From an uncultured Rickettsia sp. (GTDB lineage: Bacteria > Pseudomonadota > Alphaproteobacteria > Rickettsiales > UBA1997): a DNA stretch of 36,335 bases. The stretch covers positions 1 to 36,335 of the forward strand of contig CAYPUN010000001.1 in assembly GCA_964413985.1 (NCBI GenBank), read 5' to 3'. Under the pieces are notes generated by a model that was given only the letters and a program-made list of their open reading frames with translations, ran no database searches and was not told where the DNA came from. A program made the translations under genes and the position numbers. Each line of letters starts with the position of its first letter. Position 1 is the first letter of the stretch. Positions 3,579-21,002 of the stretch are shown in pieces.

Positions 3579-4142
3579 ATGCCTTTATACAGCGTTTCTG
3601 AATCTAAAGAAGAAGTTATTATCTCGAACGATAGTCCAGAATATATCACGCAAAAACAATTAGAGAATACTATTGACAACGACAATCTGCAAAAATTAAC
3701 TTTACATAATTGCGCACCTTTGCAAGCGGCAGATTCTGAAAGAAGAAGTCCTGGTTTTTTTCGACAAATAAAAGCAAAAGAAGTTAAAGTAACCGGAGAT
3801 GATCAAATAGAATTTGCTGCTCTTGTCAATCTTTTATGCAATGAAAATGTTAACAAAATCACTATTCAGATAAATTCTCGATTGATTGATAACGAATCGA
3901 TTGCAGAACTTCTAAAGGATAATCATAATTTGGTCGAACTTAAAATTCTTGATTACCCAGACAAGAGCAATATCTATTCTTTAACAGAAAAGTGCTCCCA
4001 ATATCTTCAAAGAAACCTAGATGAGAAGACTCGTCGCGAGTCAGCTACTCAAGCAGGTGAACCTCAAGCGTCTGCAGCGGCAGCATCAGCGGCACCAGCT
4101 TCAGCAGCAGATACAACAAAGAAGCGTCCTCACGCCTTATAA
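3579..4142 (+). CDS. hypothetical protein, possible RNI-type leucine-rich-repeat fold with an Ala-rich C-terminal tail
   Basis: 187-aa ORF with its own AT-rich upstream region. Contains LRR-like segments (LQKLTLHNC; NKITIQINSRLIDNESIAELLKDNHNLVELKILDY). The tail is QASAAAASAAPASAADTTKKRPHAL. I recognise no conserved enzyme motif. Confidence 0.55.
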   Translation: MPLYSVSESKEEVIISNDSPEYITQKQLENTIDNDNLQKLTLHNCAPLQAADSERRSPGFFRQIKAKEVKVTGDDQIEFAALVNLLCNENVNKITIQINSRLIDNESIAELLKDNHNLVELKILDYPDKSNIYSLTEKCSQYLQRNLDEKTRRESATQAGEPQASAAAASAAPASAADTTKKRPHAL

Positions 4143-11202: not shown

Positions 11203-11841
11203 ATGGCACAAAATTATCATACTATCATGACTGCAAACAAAGAATCATCTTCAGGCGGCAAGCCAGAAGGCTCTAGCACCGAGCACAAAACTTTAAGAAG
11301 ACAACAATCTTTTTCGCAGCGCCTTTCTCATGCATTTGAAAGTGGCAAAGATGCTGGTGAAAAATTGGGCAATGTGGCGAGTGAAATCGCTGACAGCGCG
11401 GCTGAGTGGATCAACAACAATCCAAAAAAAGTAAAAGCAATTGCGGCGATCACTGCAACTGTTGTTGGTGCTTTTACAAGCGGCATTGGCGGCATTGCTG
11501 CTGCAGCTGCGCTGGCTGTGGCGGAAGAGGCTATTGCAAAACTTGCTTCCAACAGAGTTGATACAATTCAAAAAAGAGAAAACGCTTTGCAAGAGAGAGA
11601 AAAAAATGGTGTTGATGGAAAAGGAAAAGAGCTTGAAAGCTTGTCACCAGCGGATCAGGTCACTCAGATGCTAAAAAATATCAGCGACAAAATGTCGGAA
11701 ATGGAAAAAGATAGCGCGGTTTCAAAAGAGCATTTAGATGCGATCAGAAAAAATTTAGGTAGCATGCAGCAAGCTTCGCAATCTTGGTCTGAAAGGGCTG
11801 AAGCCACTAAGCCAAAAGGCGAAGAATTTGGCGGCAGATAA
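11203..11841 (+). CDS. hypothetical protein with a central hydrophobic hairpin and C-terminal EEFGGR
   Basis: 212-aa ORF packed between metG (3-nt gap) and xthA (TAATG overlap). The hydrophobic stretch is AIAAITATVVGAFTSGIGGIAAAAALAVAEEAIA (aa ~78-112). The flanks are polar and charged, and I recognise no family. Confidence 0.6.
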   Translation: MAQNYHTIMTANKESSSGGKPEGSSTEHKTLRRQQSFSQRLSHAFESGKDAGEKLGNVASEIADSAAEWINNNPKKVKAIAAITATVVGAFTSGIGGIAAAAALAVAEEAIAKLASNRVDTIQKRENALQEREKNGVDGKGKELESLSPADQVTQMLKNISDKMSEMEKDSAVSKEHLDAIRKNLGSMQQASQSWSERAEATKPKGEEFGGR

Positions 11842-12647: not shown

Positions 12648-12779
12648 ATTTTTATATTTTAAAATTTGCGTAGCAAAGGCGTGGGGATGGTACTTCGCCC
12701 CTCAGACAGTGGCGCGCCAAAACTCGGTTCGAAATACCATCCCCACGCCTTTGCTACGCAAATTTTAAAATATAAAAAT
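12648..12779. repeat. long intergenic palindrome (45-bp perfect arms, 42-nt centre)
   Basis: Arm 12648-12692 (atttttatattttaaaatttgcgtagcaaaggcgtggggatggta) is the exact reverse complement of 12735-12779. It starts 7 nt after the xthA stop. Confidence 0.9.
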
Positions 12780-12915
12780 CACTATTTAATTTTTTAAAAA
12801 CTGGGGTTTTTAAGGTTTTTGGTTTTTGTAATTTTTTAGAATTTTTGCCAATTTCTGCAAAATATTCCTTTCGCACTCTTACTTAAAGTTTTGTTAAAAA
12901 AATAATAAAAATTCT

Positions 12916-13059
12916 GAATTGTTTTGTTTGATAAATTGAGTGGTAAGAATATTTGCGTAGCCCCGCTTAGCTTTTTTTAAACCGACGAGGTTTAAAAAAA
13001 GGTTGCCGTAGGGGCGTAGCAAATATTCTTACCACTCAATTTATCAAACAAAACAATTC
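12916..13059. repeat. long intergenic palindrome, core family 1 (41-bp perfect arms around a 57-nt conserved core)
   Basis: Arm 12916-12956 is the exact reverse complement of 13019-13059. Core 12961-13017 is 56/57 identical to 35210-35266. Confidence 0.9.
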
Positions 13060-13227
13060 TCTACATTCCAAACAAAGCCAACATTTTCAAACAAAACAAT
13101 TCTCAACTTGAGATTTAGTTTCTAAAATATCTTTTCTTTTAAAAATTCCTTTTTACAATTCTTCAAGAATTTCTTTATAATAATTTTTTAAGCGGCAATC
13201 AAAAACGCTGCGAAGGTAATATTTACA

Positions 13228-13581: not shown

Positions 13582-15222
13582 ATGAACAGAAGCATCTTGA
13601 TAAAAGTAGCAGTGGCGCTATTGGTTGTGATTTTGCTACATAGCGTATTTTGGTTTTTCAAAACTGGACAGCTCGAAAAGCATCTTAACAATTTTGTTAC
13701 CGAAAACAACACGGCCATTTCAGCTGCTGAAATCAAGGTTGCGGGCTATCCTTTCTCACAAAAAATTGTGGCAAAAGATTTGAAATTCACAATTCCAAAT
13801 TCAGCTTTCAGCAAATATCAAATTATTGTAAAAGATTTTGAAGCAAGCGCTGGAATTTTCAGCAAAGATTTCACAGTTGATGTTGCAGACAAAATCACTG
13901 TGCAAGATTTAGATGGCAATATTGGTAATGTTGAATTTGCACAAATGCCAAAAATTTCTTTCTCTATTTCAGATGGAATCGTGTCAAGCTTCTCTTACGC
14001 CGACAACGGTTACAAGATTTTCGACATCGACAAAAACATCATTTATAGCGCAGCTTCTTCAACAATCAATTTGGTTTCAACAATTGATTCTAGCGATCAA
14101 ATCACTTCTAAACTAAACGTTGCAGTGAGAGAAATCGAAGGTTTCGATGTGATCGACATTTATAGAAATTCTTCTGAGAAAAAAATTATTGATGGCATCA
14201 AAACTGGCGAAATTTCGCTTGGAAGCGGTGCTGCTGTTGCAATGATTGGCAGCGATCCATCTTTTGCAAGCAACGCTGCAAACCCTGCTGCGCCCAACGC
14301 GCCAGTGGTTGTGCCAACTGCAACAAGTGATTCAGCGATGACGCCTCCAGCTTCTGCACCATCTCCAGCTGCGGCTGCAGCAAATGCTGCAAAGGCTGCC
14401 GCTTCGGCTCAACAAGCTGCTGCGCCAAACGGCGCTCCAGTTGCTGGCGCTGCACCTGTTGCCGCTGCGCCAAATCAAGCTCCAGTTGTTGGAACTCCGG
14501 CTGATATAGCCGCAAAAGTTGCTTCTGGTGCCGCAATTCCTTCTGCAGCCGCTCCAGCTGCTGTTCCTGGCGTTGCTGCTGCAAATGTTGCAACTCAAAC
14601 TGCAGACGCAGCAAAAGCAACAATCGATCCATCAAAGCCTGCAGCTCTTGATGTTGCAAGCTTGATCGCAAAAAGCGATGTCACAAAATCGAACTTAATT
14701 ATCGACATCGAATATGTTCTAACTCCAACTAAAAATGATCAGCAAGGCTCTGTTCCACTTGACCCTGCTCAAATGCAAGAAAATGCCACTCAATATAGCA
14801 GAGTCGTAAAAGTCAACAATATCGAGTTTTCAAATGCGCTTTACAAAATCTCTTTAAACGGCCAAGTAAACTATTTTCAAGACGACAATTTGCCATCAGG
14901 TTTTGTAACGGTGAAAATCGAAAACATCGACAAATTTGTTGAATATGTCGCAACCGGTTTCACGCAAATTGTTGAGCAAAAGCAAATCGTGCCAAGCGTT
15001 CAATCTAACGATTTGGCGGCTCAATCTTCACAAACTCAAAGCACAGCATATCAAGATTTCTTAAGAAAAATCTCGGCTTCACTTGGCAATGTGTCAAAAG
15101 AATTGGCTGACAAAAATCAGCTTACAAAAGACAATGTTGCTTTGTTTGATATGCGTCGCGAAAAAAATCTTGAGTTCATCATCAACGAAACTCCATTGCG
15201 CGAAGTTTTAGGAAAATTCTAA
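13582..15222 (+). CDS. membrane-anchored hypothetical protein (possibly DUF2125-like) with a long Ala/Pro-rich insert
   Basis: 546 aa. It has an N-terminal TM anchor (ILIKVAVALLVVILLHSVFWFF) and a ~140-aa A/P/V-rich central tract. A hairpin terminator lies downstream. The family assignment is from memory of the N-terminal pattern only and is weak. Confidence 0.6.
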   Translation: MNRSILIKVAVALLVVILLHSVFWFFKTGQLEKHLNNFVTENNTAISAAEIKVAGYPFSQKIVAKDLKFTIPNSAFSKYQIIVKDFEASAGIFSKDFTVDVADKITVQDLDGNIGNVEFAQMPKISFSISDGIVSSFSYADNGYKIFDIDKNIIYSAASSTINLVSTIDSSDQITSKLNVAVREIEGFDVIDIYRNSSEKKIIDGIKTGEISLGSGAAVAMIGSDPSFASNAANPAAPNAPVVVPTATSDSAMTPPASAPSPAAAAANAAKAAASAQQAAAPNGAPVAGAAPVAAAPNQAPVVGTPADIAAKVASGAAIPSAAAPAAVPGVAAANVATQTADAAKATIDPSKPAALDVASLIAKSDVTKSNLIIDIEYVLTPTKNDQQGSVPLDPAQMQENATQYSRVVKVNNIEFSNALYKISLNGQVNYFQDDNLPSGFVTVKIENIDKFVEYVATGFTQIVEQKQIVPSVQSNDLAAQSSQTQSTAYQDFLRKISASLGNVSKELADKNQLTKDNVALFDMRREKNLEFIINETPLREVLGKF

Positions 15223-16231: not shown

Positions 16232-18697
16232 CTATCTTTGATAAGAGTCGTTTTTGCTAGCCTCGCTTTGATCGGCGGCAGAACCTCCTCCAAATTTTTC
16301 AACCATACTCTGCACGTGACCTTTTTCACCCGCTTTCGGCTCATTGCTGCCCTTTTTTTCCTTCACCTCTTCTGTTGTAAGACTTTCTATGGTATTGGAT
16401 ACGTCATTTGATCTTTGTTCCCTCTTGCTCTTCATCTTTTCCATGGCAATAACTACCTCGTTGCGCGCATTTTCTGCCGCAAGTCTACCTTGATCAGATT
16501 CTGCAACATTATCATCTTTTTTACTTGAAACCTCAGGTTTTTTATCATCCTCGGTTTGTTGTCCGCTCTGAGGAAGTGAAGGGGTTGTATTATTTTTTGT
16601 TTCCGCAACTTGAGCAGAATTTGATGCTTGAGCGGTTTCAGCTTCTGCCGCTTTATTGGTTAGCTTGTCATCGTCAAGATCGTTATTTGCGCCTTTGGCT
16701 TCCGACCCTTGTTGTTGCGCACCAAGTGTGTCAGCAGCCATCGCTTCAAGGCTAAGTGGTCCAGCTAAAGTATTGACTCCAGTATTCAATGCTTGCTCAA
16801 CCCCAGCACTATTGCTTTGGCCACTATTAGCCTGCGTCAAGATCTCTGAAGCGACACCTAAATGGTCTTTGGCAATTTTAACGCCTCCTTGCAAATCTTG
16901 CGCTATTGCTGCATTGGCCACTAGTGATGCTAAGTCTTGCGCTTCTTCTGCCACACCAGCGCCGACGGCTGGAGTTGTTGCGTCAGGCTCTGGTTCTGTT
17001 GGGGCGCTTGCAGGTTGCCCTGAAGGAGCCGCAGTGGTGGTGGTGGTGATCTTTTTTGATGTCAATGGTCCAGTTCCAGCTACATTTAGAGGGGGTTTGT
17101 TAACATCCGGCTCTTCTTCCTCTCCCTCATTCTCTTTCTCCGCCTCTGACTCAACTTCCTTCTCCCCCTCTTTCTCCTTCTTCAACCCATCCTTGCCAGT
17201 CATAGCCTCTTCAAGCTCCTCTGGTTTTTCGCCTTTCGTAATTTTCTGAAAATATTCAGCCGCAGACAGGTCCGCATCTTCGTCTTTCTCTTTTCCTTCC
17301 TCCTCAGCAACGTCCTGAATCTTCTCAGGTTTCTTGCGGCTTAAAAGAAAAATACCAGCAGCAATAATGCCAGCAATCGCCAAAGGCGGGCACAAAACCG
17401 CGGTGGTGCCAATTGCTGCAATGGCAACAATTCCCTTCACCCCTTGCTTCGCCATTTCGACTTTCTTTTTCAAATCTTCATCAAGCGGCTTATAAGGATA
17501 TTTTCCCTTTTCTTGCACAATTCCATTTTGCTTGCCCTGCGCTGCAAGTTTTTTAGCCTCTTCTTCCTCTTTTTCCTTGGCCTTTCTTTCGGCATAAGCG
17601 TCAGGATTCACCAACTCTTCCGTTCTGTCAGAAACAAATTCTTTAAATTTATCAACCGCACTTTGCGCAACGCCTATTAAAGGATTGTTTTTTGGGGTTA
17701 GGTCTAAAAGTTCCGCTAGATTTGTGCCAAGATGATTAAAGTCAGTTTCAGGTGTCGGATTGTCTTCTTCAAGAAAGCCAAATAATCTCGCTAAATTTTT
17801 TAAGAAACCAATTTTAACCTTAGGATCAACATCTGTTTTATCTGCACCAAAGACCTCTGCAACCGCAGAATGAAACGCAAAAAATGCTGTGTCTTTTTGA
17901 GATAATTCAACGTTTTTTTGAGAATAAAAACCGCTTCGAAATTTTTCTAGTGCCGCTGTGTCATTTTCATCTTTTATGCCAGCAATTCCTTCAAGATTTG
18001 ACTTTGCAACGCCCTTCCTATCTGGGTCTATAACAATTGACTTTTGAATTGTTTCAAGAAGAAATTTTGCGTCTTTTTCTTGTTGTTCTTGTTCTGGGGT
18101 TTTTGGTGTTGGTGTGGTTGTTGTTGGCGCTGTTGGTGCGGTTGCGGTTGGGGTAGCTGCTGTTGCCGTGGCAGGTGTTGCGGGTGTTGTCGTGGCTGTT
18201 GGTGTTGCAGCTGCGGCTGCTGGTGTTGTAGGTGTTGCGGTCGCAGGTGTTGCTGCTGTAGGCGTGGTTGCTGCAGTAGCTGTTGGCGCCGCTCCAGCTG
18301 GGTTTGGTGTGGCTGGCACAGTGCTAGTAGCTACAGTAGTACCACCAAGTGCAGCGCCTCCAGTTGTGACTGCGTTACCTGTGGTTGTATTTAGTGGATC
18401 TGGTGCAGCGGCTCTTGATGTCGCTGGCACTGGTTCCATATATAATTGTTCCTGAGGAGTACTGCCTGCGGGGGCTGTAGTTCTAGCTGGAGGGGTTGGC
18501 AATTTTTCATCCCCCACAAGCACTCTTGGTTCAGCATATATGTCATTGTCATTAAGAAAATCTGTCTCTGCGTTAGTGTTTCTCAAGCTAAGATCTCCAC
18601 CAGTGGATCCTGCATTATAAAACCCAGTGGTAGTATCATCTGGACTTGCTGCGGTTGTAGTGGTTGTCGCCTTATCGTAGAAAGTATTATTCGTCAC
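16232..18697 (-). CDS. large lineage-specific protein with a T/A/P-rich tract, a hydrophobic hairpin, an acidic K/E-rich region and a C-terminal KFGG motif
   Basis: 821-aa ORF with a GTG start in the track. Aa ~95-200 are almost only T/A/P. The hairpin is GIVAIAAIGTTAVLCPPLAIAGIIAAGIFLL (aa ~422-452). I recognise no enzyme motifs. An in-frame ATG-initiated extension, interrupted by one TAA, lies upstream (see findings). Confidence 0.7.
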   Translation of the reverse strand: MTNNTFYDKATTTTTAASPDDTTTGFYNAGSTGGDLSLRNTNAETDFLNDNDIYAEPRVLVGDEKLPTPPARTTAPAGSTPQEQLYMEPVPATSRAAAPDPLNTTTGNAVTTGGAALGGTTVATSTVPATPNPAGAAPTATAATTPTAATPATATPTTPAAAAATPTATTTPATPATATAATPTATAPTAPTTTTPTPKTPEQEQQEKDAKFLLETIQKSIVIDPDRKGVAKSNLEGIAGIKDENDTAALEKFRSGFYSQKNVELSQKDTAFFAFHSAVAEVFGADKTDVDPKVKIGFLKNLARLFGFLEEDNPTPETDFNHLGTNLAELLDLTPKNNPLIGVAQSAVDKFKEFVSDRTEELVNPDAYAERKAKEKEEEEAKKLAAQGKQNGIVQEKGKYPYKPLDEDLKKKVEMAKQGVKGIVAIAAIGTTAVLCPPLAIAGIIAAGIFLLSRKKPEKIQDVAEEEGKEKDEDADLSAAEYFQKITKGEKPEELEEAMTGKDGLKKEKEGEKEVESEAEKENEGEEEEPDVNKPPLNVAGTGPLTSKKITTTTTAAPSGQPASAPTEPEPDATTPAVGAGVAEEAQDLASLVANAAIAQDLQGGVKIAKDHLGVASEILTQANSGQSNSAGVEQALNTGVNTLAGPLSLEAMAADTLGAQQQGSEAKGANNDLDDDKLTNKAAEAETAQASNSAQVAETKNNTTPSLPQSGQQTEDDKKPEVSSKKDDNVAESDQGRLAAENARNEVVIAMEKMKSKREQRSNDVSNTIESLTTEEVKEKKGSNEPKAGEKGHVQSMVEKFGGGSAADQSEASKNDSYQR

Positions 18698-20908: not shown

Positions 20909-21002
20909 ATTATTCCTTTGTTACAGGTGATATAGCTCTTAGCCGCGACTGAGCCACGCTTGGAGCGTCTAAGAGCTATATCACCTGTAACAAAGGAATA
21001 AT
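20909..21002. repeat. long intergenic palindrome, core family 2 (34-bp perfect arms, 26-nt centre)
   Basis: Arm 20909-20942 (attattcctttgttacaggtgatatagctcttag) is the exact reverse complement of 20969-21002. The centre ccgcgactgagccacgcttggagcgt resembles 25162-25188. Confidence 0.9.

Follow-up and report, generated by a model that had tools for sequence, protein, structure and literature searches.

The 36,335-nt stretch of contig CAYPUN010000001.1 from an uncultured Rickettsia sp., hereafter called the window, carries two intergenic hairpins, X-A (12916-13059) and X-B (35168-35305), in which one nearly identical core is mounted on perfectly paired arms of different sequence. The explanation that we rank first, though tentatively, is that the X loci are modular repeats of the foldback MITE (miniature inverted-repeat transposable element) or REPIN (hairpin-forming doublet of repetitive extragenic palindromes, REPs) kind, that their common core is a young apical module lodged in two older hairpins, and that the arms are kept perfect by template switching. 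The window represents 36 kb of one genome, and X was seen as these two copies only within it. The related loci retrieved for comparison are numbered L001 to L277.

Two copies of one core on different, perfectly paired arms

The two copies of the core (Table 1) were identical at 57 of 58 positions, and the sole difference, C in X-A and T in X-B (12986/35235), was located in the 5-nt loop of the inner hairpin. The original prediction had described a 57-nt core with a single difference in its loop, flanked by arms complementary at 41/41 and 38/38 positions; these coordinates and counts held, the shared stretch being 58 nt. Core copy A can be divided into a closing stem (GCCCC/GGGGC), asymmetric internal loops, and a 13-bp A+T stem (CTTTTTTTAAACC/GGTTTAAAAAAAG) closed by the loop GACGA. 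In X-B, the pairing of the arms runs on into the core, resulting in 46 paired nt with one G-T position. The energetics of folding, which the original prediction had proposed to check, were calculated for single-stranded DNA: the predicted folds reached −63 and −65 kcal/mol compared with approximately −15 ± 3 kcal/mol for shuffled sequences (z −15.9 and −16.6, that is, about −16), and these structures cannot be the products of chance.

The G+C content of the core was 0.48 compared with 0.27-0.29 in the arms and 0.29 in the intergenic background. The core contains the motif GTAG two or three times, or GTGG, and its two known copies stand in direct orientation, unlike the units of a REP doublet; relative to the adjacent genes, the orientation of the core is opposite at the two loci. 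The outermost bases are self-complementary (AT...AT) in three of the four long palindromes of the window, and X-A has GAAT...ATTC with TCT on both sides. A palindromic target duplication of 2-4 nt is indistinguishable from arm sequence in X.

Junctions between the core and the arms

In both copies, the arms ended 3 nt before the shared 58-mer and resumed 1 nt after it. When 59 nt (12960-13018 or 35209-35267) were excised in silico, perfect hairpins of 41 and 38 bp were obtained with −43 and −40 kcal/mol, respectively, and their tips became TTTGC-GTA-GCAAA in X-A and GTTAC-TAC-GTAAC in X-B, that is, one triloop on opposite strands. The rebuilt 14-mer tip of X-A (ATTTGCGTAGCAAA) was found intact 250 nt upstream, within the arms of another palindrome of the window, I1, which contain the mini-hairpin TTTGC-GTA-GCAAA, and X-A itself is bracketed by the 7-nt direct repeat GCGTAGC. 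The core junctions (GTA^ and TAC^), together with the GTAG repeats, are compatible with insertion beside a fixed short motif in these two cases. The left linker of X-A, GTA, is the reverse complement of the TAC expected from the matching place in X-B, which is suggestive only as a sign of template switching. The original prediction had offered three options for the origin of such loci, and the first of them, a small mobile hairpin entering the centres of pre-existing palindromes, was favoured by the junction geometry, the occurrence of the tip 14-mer in I1, and the G+C contrast, though from two copies only.

Arm ends resemble those of a third palindrome

According to the original prediction, the arms are unrelated between the two loci. 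Direct comparison of the X-A and X-B arms agreed with this, as neither the 12/22 matches at their ends (p = 0.08) nor their global alignment (p = 0.42) was significant, and the inner arms were unrelated. The claim did not hold for the ends when these were compared with I1, which lies 136 nt upstream of X-A and starts 7 nt past the stop codon of the ExoIII-like gene: the outer 22 nt of the X-A arm (from 12918) matched the I1 end at 15/22 positions (p = 0.003) and those of the X-B arm at 16/22 (p = 0.0009), both against ATT-anchored intergenic 22-mers, which is moderate evidence, as 16/22 matches arise by chance in coding DNA as well. Both X arms open with ATTGT, and the outer approximately 20 nt of the X-A left arm (GAATTGTTTTGTTTGATAAATT...) look like a terminal inverted repeat by their sequence. 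The two parts of the elements show a contrast of age: the core is conserved at 57/58 positions with no compensatory change in the 13-bp stem, and the arms are at chance level but for their ends.

A solo partial copy of the X-A right-arm end and its flank follows the element (Table 1); here, 12909-12934 and 13084-13109 form an inverted-repeat pair at 85%, and 17 of 22 positions match the X-A arm end. Two other likenesses were discarded, since the matches of the I1 arm end in marine relatives were coding sequence and the “mini hairpin” at 35434-35461, considered as a further family member, was a chance match inside the Na+/H+ exchanger gene.

The X core was found only in the window

An exact match to the X inner hairpin was found in none of 185,579 species-representative genomes, the JGI metagenomes and IMG/VR, and a profile search (nhmmer) for decayed copies in the window and approximately 2.9 Mb of relatives returned only the two known ones. 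Scanning with the outer motif gave five matches, all of which were chance matches in unrelated coding DNA. The specific sequences of X, or of the W family described below, were not found in the literature searched. The idea that the arms act as anti-phage spacers or guides was dropped after two arm 20-mers had been unmatched in IMG/VR, which is a weak test.

The W family shows the same combination of a common core and different arms

A single exact pattern taken from the core of a repeat, named W, in L093, L089, and L166 retrieved 104 loci (L174-L277), all of them from freshwater Rickettsiales-like metagenome-assembled genomes (MAGs). Many W copies were at contig ends, as expected for a high-copy repeat. 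The element is approximately 160 nt long and TA-flanked, begins with TACC, and consists of stems of a fixed length of approximately 34 nt and an apical module of approximately 100 nt, which is built round the palindrome GTATCACTTGATAC with fixed asymmetric bulges and has the 5-nt direct repeat CTTCG at both edges. Within one genome, most W copies have the same arms, which is ordinary MITE behaviour, and several subfamilies with a common core and different stem modules coexist. For instance, L195 and L229, both from one MAG, have the ends ATATACCAAAC in common and cores of approximately 100 nt that are about 96% identical, while their mid-arms of approximately 20 nt are about 45% identical; dissimilar arms were detected in 551 of 1030 palindrome pairs with a common centre. 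W cores were 96-98% identical when compared inside one genome; between genera, at a protein identity of approximately 70-75%, the value was 88-95%. A common core on different, perfectly paired arms is a trait within this clade and not a unique oddity. The statement of the original prediction that an ordinary MITE would show the opposite pattern was too strong, as the copies of the MITE-like W family, with its 104 loci, have a core and end bases in common but dissimilar mid-stems. Further W copies were located at L166 17328-17488, L093 9675-9894, and L089 1-160.

The W family bears directly on an explanation according to which the X loci are old paralogues, that is, subfamilies, of one foldback MITE family, and their cores are alike through constraint and not through recency. 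The core and a few end bases would be read by the mobilizing enzyme and kept under selection, and the stems would drift neutrally with compensation and occasional swaps by recombination. W behaves in this way, as seen from the L195/L229 pair, the 551/1030 pairs, and the core identity between genera; moreover, W hybrids with one swapped arm exist, and both X arms start with ATTGT and resemble the I1 ends. However, compensatory changes in the inner stems of the core distinguish those W subfamilies whose arms differ, whereas X shows none in the 13-bp stem or elsewhere in the 58 nt. A constrained core would also be expected in related genomes, as is the case for W, whereas X was found in no collection, and the X arms differ in length (41 and 38 nt), unlike the fixed stems of W. 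Old paralogy of the X loci is the main rival explanation, if a somewhat unlikely one.

Palindromes of the relatives come and go as whole units

A set of related loci amounting to approximately 2 Mb contained 47 palindromes whose arms, 20-56 nt long, were perfect. In many palindromes of the relatives, a REP-like unit, in which a short hairpin follows TGTCA, is present twice in inverted orientation, which gives a REPIN-like architecture. A 94-nt palindrome present in L005 was missing from the empty sites in L006 and L032, the flanks being 92-96% identical, and was accompanied by a duplication of TTTAA (or TA). In L017, an element was found inside CTAG at the stop codon of metG (encoding MetRS), and the displaced gene end is readable downstream. 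A 161-nt W element, which is nested in one arm of another repeat, was detected in L166 and L170 but not in L167, the dcd proteins of these loci being identical. In every comparison of filled and empty sites in the relatives, the empty site was without both arms, which shows that palindromes come and go there as whole units, both arms included.

These results count against the second option of the original prediction, in which the arms are an inverted duplication of the local flank. This explanation supposes that the core entered ordinary intergenic DNA and that the arms were then made by fold-back or template-switch synthesis, which was primed at the core hairpin and copied the local flank. 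It would agree with the G+C content of the arms, which equals the intergenic background, with the partial third copy of the X-A arm end, and with stem extension by template switching, which is seen both in the relatives (3 nt, L089 vs L090) and in the literature. In L087, the left arm of the palindrome extends over the final 8 nt of the ExoIII-like gene, an ancestral sequence as judged from L001; this was also regarded as a point in its favour, but a palindromic duplication of TTATAA or TA accounts for the overlap just as well. Besides the empty sites without arms, the resemblance of the X-A and X-B ends to a third element is unexpected for locus-specific flanks, and in X-A a 3 × 3 mismatch lies between the arms and the supposed primer hairpin. 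The synthesis of the arms from local flanks is considered improbable and has the weakest support among the three options.

The arms are homogenized in the relatives

The palindromes at L089 14481-14574 and L090 15485-15566 are orthologous and REPIN-like, with flanks 98% identical. Their 22-nt centres match at 17/22 positions when one is inverted and at 5/22 in direct comparison, and a 3-base change extends the stem in L089 relative to L090. This pair is a clean natural case of the products of template switching or arm recombination. A similar inversion of the centre was suspected for L166/L170, but it was unsupported on scoring. In the W family, arm substitutions were mirrored in the opposite arm, hybrid copies of two subfamilies with one swapped arm were present in L223 and L262 (first element), and the copy in L264 was symmetrized, having perfect 40-nt arms even through the normally bulged core. 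Copies resembling intermediates, that is, hybrids, half-overwritten copies, and half elements truncated at the core, were noted among L223, L262, L264, L196, and L249/L244/L273.

Template switching between the arms of inverted repeats is known from publications to leave homogenized arms, inverted spacers, and extended stems (PMC8604942; PMC8794818; PMC5941160), and the arm changes in the relatives match this. The third option of the original prediction, intra-palindrome correction, is well supported as the reason for perfect arms by the mirrored substitutions, the inverted centre, and the symmetrized copies, but it is silent on why one core is shared by two loci.

Recurrence of palindromes at three spacers

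Three spacers of the window, those following the ExoIII-like gene, between ndk and the PRA-PH gene, and between dcd and the exchanger gene, hold other palindromes in other genera, and the most economical explanation of this recurrence is that compact genomes contain few permissive sites. The same recurrence could be read as a sign that the elements serve the host, either as a structured RNA (a small RNA, an element of an untranslated region, or a bidirectional terminator) or as a protein-binding DNA site, in which the tip is conserved and the stem need only pair. The extremely stable predicted structures would fit such a role, and so would the Y-core motifs (see below), whose orientation relative to the ExoIII-like gene is the same in the genera where they are conserved. 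Nevertheless, a search of the window with Rfam 15 gave only tRNA-Val at or above the gathering score, the sub-threshold matches being generic long hairpins (microRNA precursor models), and no terminator-like site with a U tract was found on either X element. Two of the sites are in divergent promoter spacers, the orientation of the core relative to the adjacent genes is opposite at the two loci, and the closest relatives have no element in the ExoIII-fdx spacer. In the window, the strongest promoter-like site for fdx (2Fe-2S ferredoxin gene) is downstream of X-A. Related elements are, in addition, high-copy and break assemblies. Considering these results, a host function of the elements appears very unlikely.

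Artificial palindromes could arise from chimeric fold-back reads during amplification or assembly, as fold-back chimeras do occur in amplified DNA and the window probably derives from a metagenome assembly. The palindromes are, however, contig-internal, exclusively intergenic, and flanked by intact genes, and one core is present at two loci. Analogues were found in dozens of assemblies made independently, and identical orthologous copies were seen in different samples, which leaves an artefact hardly conceivable.

Further variation was seen among the closest dcd relatives in the spacer that corresponds to the X-B site. A REPIN-like doublet with the arms AGATCCTGAAACAAGTTCAGGATGACG occupies the dcd/exchanger spacer (L166 9876-9959, L167 9821-9964), where its centre has grown from 30 to 88 nt via tandem duplication, and in one strain the AGATCCTGAAACAAGTTCAGGATGACG arms also occur at a second site with a different centre (L167 17330-17437). 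At 16.55-16.72 kb of L166 (also in L170 and L167), a REPIN is adjoined by tandemly arrayed 11-12-nt units (TTAGATCTAAA-like), whose copy number differs between strains with identical dcd proteins.

Gene context and other features of the window

The gene content of the window is of the housekeeping type and includes dxs, sdhB, rnhA, prfA, metG, the ExoIII-like nuclease gene, fdx, prmC, ffh, ndk, glyQ, dxr, rbfA, dcd, and tRNA-Val. Domain searches of the whole window revealed no transposase, integrase, or Y1 nuclease among its open reading frames (ORFs) and no Y1_Tnp domain, thus the absence of a transposase, noted in the original prediction for the neighbourhood, is true for the entire window. 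Protein-guided searches placed the sequence among uncultured freshwater Rickettsiales-like alphaproteobacteria, and exact look-ups of three of its proteins returned no match. The nearest genomes found had protein identities of 76-77% (ExoIII-like) and 87-88% (dcd), at which intergenic DNA is unalignable; no relative closer than 77% (ExoIII-like) or 88% (dcd) and no strain-level empty site for X were found by this search.

The four palindromes I1, X-A, I5, and X-B (Table 1) are all located in the three largest intergenic spacers of the window. I1 and X-A share the spacer between the ExoIII-like gene and fdx, which is 587 nt long, compared with 67-145 nt in the nearest relatives, which keep the gene order ExoIII-like, fdx, 546-aa protein, prmC. 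Since this spacer is free of palindromes in the relatives, the palindromes of the window appear to be gains in its own lineage. X-B is not located between two minus-strand genes, as its 245-nt spacer is divergent, between dcd (−) and the Na+/H+ exchanger gene starting at 35380 (+).

Table 1. Positions and properties of the palindromes of the window and of their parts
Feature	Coordinates	Strand	Properties
I1 palindrome	12648-12779		50-nt arms (12648-12697/12730-12779), one mismatch, 32-nt centre
X-A left arm	12916-12956		41 nt, 41/41 complementary to 13019-13059; G+C 0.27
X-A left linker GTA	12957-12959	+	unpaired, opposite GTA 13016-13018; 3 × 3 internal loop in predicted fold
X core copy A	12960-13017	+	58 nt, 57/58 to 35209-35266; −18.4 kcal/mol, z −4.8
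X-A right arm	13019-13059		41 nt, perfect complement of 12916-12956
Solo partial copy of X-A right-arm end and flank (TTTTCAAACAAAACAATTCTCAAC)	13079-13107		20 nt downstream of X-A
I5 palindrome	20909-21002		38-nt arms (20909-20946/20965-21002), one mismatch, 18-nt centre; divergent ndk/PRA-PH spacer
X-B left arm	35168-35205		38 nt, begins ATTGTGATATTTTGAAATTAAT; 38/38 complementary to 35268-35305
X core copy B	35209-35266	+	58 nt, loop GATGA; + strand orientation same as copy A
X-B right arm	35268-35305		38 nt; element end 34 nt from dcd start codon, divergent dcd/Na+-H+ exchanger spacer

The long palindromes I1 and I5 were not mentioned in the original prediction. The centre of I1, called the Y core, has the structure CCCCTCAGACAG-TGGCGCGCCA-AAACTCGGTT. 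Its motifs CTCAGACA(G/T) and (A)AACTCG flank a variable hairpin of 10-55 nt and were found in I1 and in two other genera (L087 1044-1181 and L081 17689-17849), on arms wholly different from those of I1. The Y element of L087 likewise follows the stop codon of the ExoIII-like gene directly and has perfect 42-nt arms, and the arms of the L081 element are 79% complementary. In the ndk/PRA-PH spacer, long palindromes with differing arms are present in three genera (I5 in the window, L003 10703-10802, and the Y-like L081 17689-17849). The 18-nt centre of I5 shares CTTAGC, CTGAGCC, and GGAGC in the same order with the L081 element on the opposite strand, and this sequence likeness suggests that I5 may be its decayed, flipped orthologue.

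The Na+/H+ exchanger gene (35380-36335, +) runs past the end of the window and is absent from the ORF list; the 118-aa ORF at 35700-36056 (−), which sits inside it, is spurious. The genes downstream of X-A had been guessed by size to be groES/groEL, which was wrong, as they encode the 2Fe-2S ferredoxin and the 546-aa protein without a Pfam match. This protein adjoins fdx in the relatives too, with conservation limited to the N-terminal approximately 200 residues (48-66% identity). Pfam matches were lacking for four sizeable ORFs, at 13582-15222 (+, 546 aa), 16232-18697 (−, 821 aa), 11203-11841 (+, 212 aa), and 3579-4142 (+, 187 aa). A 45-nt direct repeat, 89% identical and 2.2 kb apart, was noted at 29102-29146 and 31285-31329. 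The former copy precedes the start of a 759-aa cytidylyltransferase-like gene (26779-29058, −) by 44 nt. The latter is situated within the 3′ end of the neighbouring M50 peptidase gene and precedes the start of a 684-aa paralogue (29153-31207, −) by 78 nt. The repeat may be an upstream signal common to two genes that arose by tandem duplication.

Discussion

The likeness of the arm ends, the junctions, the tip preserved in I1 together with the GCGTAGC repeat, the G+C contrast, the lack of compensatory changes in the core, and its absence from the relatives all favour a young core in old hairpins. In the model that we put forward, both loci would be copies of a non-coding, non-autonomous foldback repeat of a kind that abounds in this clade, and each element would consist of the end sequences ATTGT...ACAAT, placed within a diverged terminal repeat of approximately 20 nt, a long stem, and an apical module, and the sequence of the stem would be free to change provided that both arms pair. 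The 58-59-nt X core, younger and richer in G+C, would have come into two hairpins of one family that had diverged before, at the point where the stem meets the tip triloop (C-GTA-G); it would either have inserted into the tip in its single-stranded form or have been transferred from another element by copy choice via GCGTAG microhomology. As a separate process, hairpin-templated template switching (quasi-palindrome correction) would maintain the arms, one arm templating the other. The movement of X itself, the order of events, and the enzyme are what we infer, and a single-strand-specific HUH/RAYT-like enzyme (RAYT, REP-associated tyrosine transposase) or plain template switching during replication are guesses. 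Insertion sequences that target palindromic repeats are documented (PMC3184786; PMC1525189).

Several points weigh against the recent entry of the core into old hairpins. Only two X copies are known, and the 7-nt direct repeat GCGTAGC is confined to copy A. The restoration of the triloop depends partly on how the 3 + 1 unshared bases are assigned, and these can equally be read as linkers of the element (TAC...GTA), the left one being inverted in copy A. The similarity of the arm ends is only moderate, as the p-values of about 0.001-0.003 are uncorrected for some 6-12 comparisons. The W family adds two further points: its cores are near-identical while the mid-stems differ, so that the near-identity of the X core is no proof of recency, and coreless hairpins with W-type ends were not found, in a sample that is biased towards W cores.

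A broader idea, which is speculative and in our judgement unlikely, is that X and W together represent an undescribed mobile type of hairpin recognized by a bulged apical module instead of terminal repeats, that is, a structure-defined transposon that targets hairpin tips. The end of the stem may set the boundary of such an element, the sequence of the stem being free, and the apical module may enter the single-stranded tips of other DNA hairpins, for example, with the help of an enzyme specific for single strands or through copy choice during replication.

Selfish DNA is expected to be lost from small, streamlined genomes, but in this clade the few spacers that are permissive are filled with long perfect hairpins. 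These hairpins reverse what is usual for small transposable repeats, as the centre and a few end bases are conserved and the stems change without losing their pairing. Should this be confirmed, they would provide a natural system for the upkeep and reshaping of palindromes by template switching in bacteria, for DNA hairpin tips as integration targets, and for the question of which part of a non-autonomous element is read by the enzyme. From a practical point of view, such repeats break metagenome assemblies and are candidate strain markers. Should X prove to be an ordinary burst of repeats whose arms form two subfamilies, the finding would be routine.

Comparison with known systems

The closest named relatives of the palindromes of this clade in general are REPINs and BIMEs (bacterial interspersed mosaic elements), REP doublets that form hairpins and are mobilized by RAYT Y1 transposases (PMC3116915, PMC2817692, PMC3333891). 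Like X, these are short, non-coding, intergenic hairpins with inverted arms round a spacer, mosaic in structure and with complementarity kept, and X carries GTAG/GTGG motifs similar to those of REP heads. In REPINs, the arms are conserved and the spacer varies, which is true for many palindromes of the relatives, whereas in X this is reversed, with a centre conserved at 57/58 positions and differing arms. The X arms are also A+T-rich, 38-41 nt long, perfect, and without internal hairpins, unlike those of REPINs.

Hairpin MITEs, such as Correia/NEMIS, bcr1, and the Rickettsia palindromic elements (PMC3184786), resemble X in being non-autonomous, intergenic, and 80-170 nt long with terminal inverted repeats, for which the perfect 41-nt and 38-nt arms of X qualify; the likeness to the Rickettsia palindromic elements was drawn at the family level. 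Short TA-containing duplications and presence/absence polymorphism, known from these MITEs, also occur in the relatives of the window, and compensatory changes that preserve the fold were reported for bcr1 (PMC3184786). Classical MITEs conserve a terminal repeat of approximately 20-30 nt and vary in the interior, whereas only a few end bases and the central module are kept in X.

With IS1397/ISKpn1, IS621, and ISPpu9 (PMC1525189, PMC3184786), there is a precedent for the specific integration of mobile DNA at the centre or edge of existing palindromic repeats, which results in nesting. Those insertion sequences encode transposases, whereas the X core of 58-59 nt encodes nothing, and its targeting of stem-loops is deduced from two cases. 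Quasi-palindrome correction (the Ripley model; PMC8604942, PMC8794818, PMC5941160) explains perfect arms, mirrored changes, spacer inversion, and stem extension, and its marks, clustered changes that raise complementarity and spacer inversion, were found in the relatives. However, it is a mutational process and not an element, and one core in two stems is unexplained by it.

W is like X in having conserved end bases (TA|TACC...), a co-varying stem of approximately 34 nt, and a conserved bulged apical module, with near-identical cores on different stems. It differs from X in that the two have no sequence similarity and W is widespread and high-copy, with a fixed stem length and a CTTCG-flanked core, whereas X is so far known from the window only. 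PATE (palindrome-associated transposable element), which is derived from IS200/IS605, has subterminal imperfect hairpins at both ends and no terminal inverted repeats, and inserts 3′ of a fixed tetra- or pentanucleotide without a duplication. Whole X elements have long terminal inverted arms, but the junctions and GTAG repeats of the X core taken alone would be compatible with such insertion in the two cases. An intrinsic terminator consists of a short G+C-rich stem with a U tract downstream of a gene, which does not apply to X, and X-B lies in a divergent promoter spacer. In integron attC sites, the hairpin is conserved at its base (R''/L'' and L'/R' boxes) and varies at its tip, and an integrase or a cassette array is adjacent, in contrast to X, which is conserved at the tip and flanked by housekeeping genes without an integrase. 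Altogether, the pattern seen in X is unusual in detail, but it does not amount to a new kind of system.

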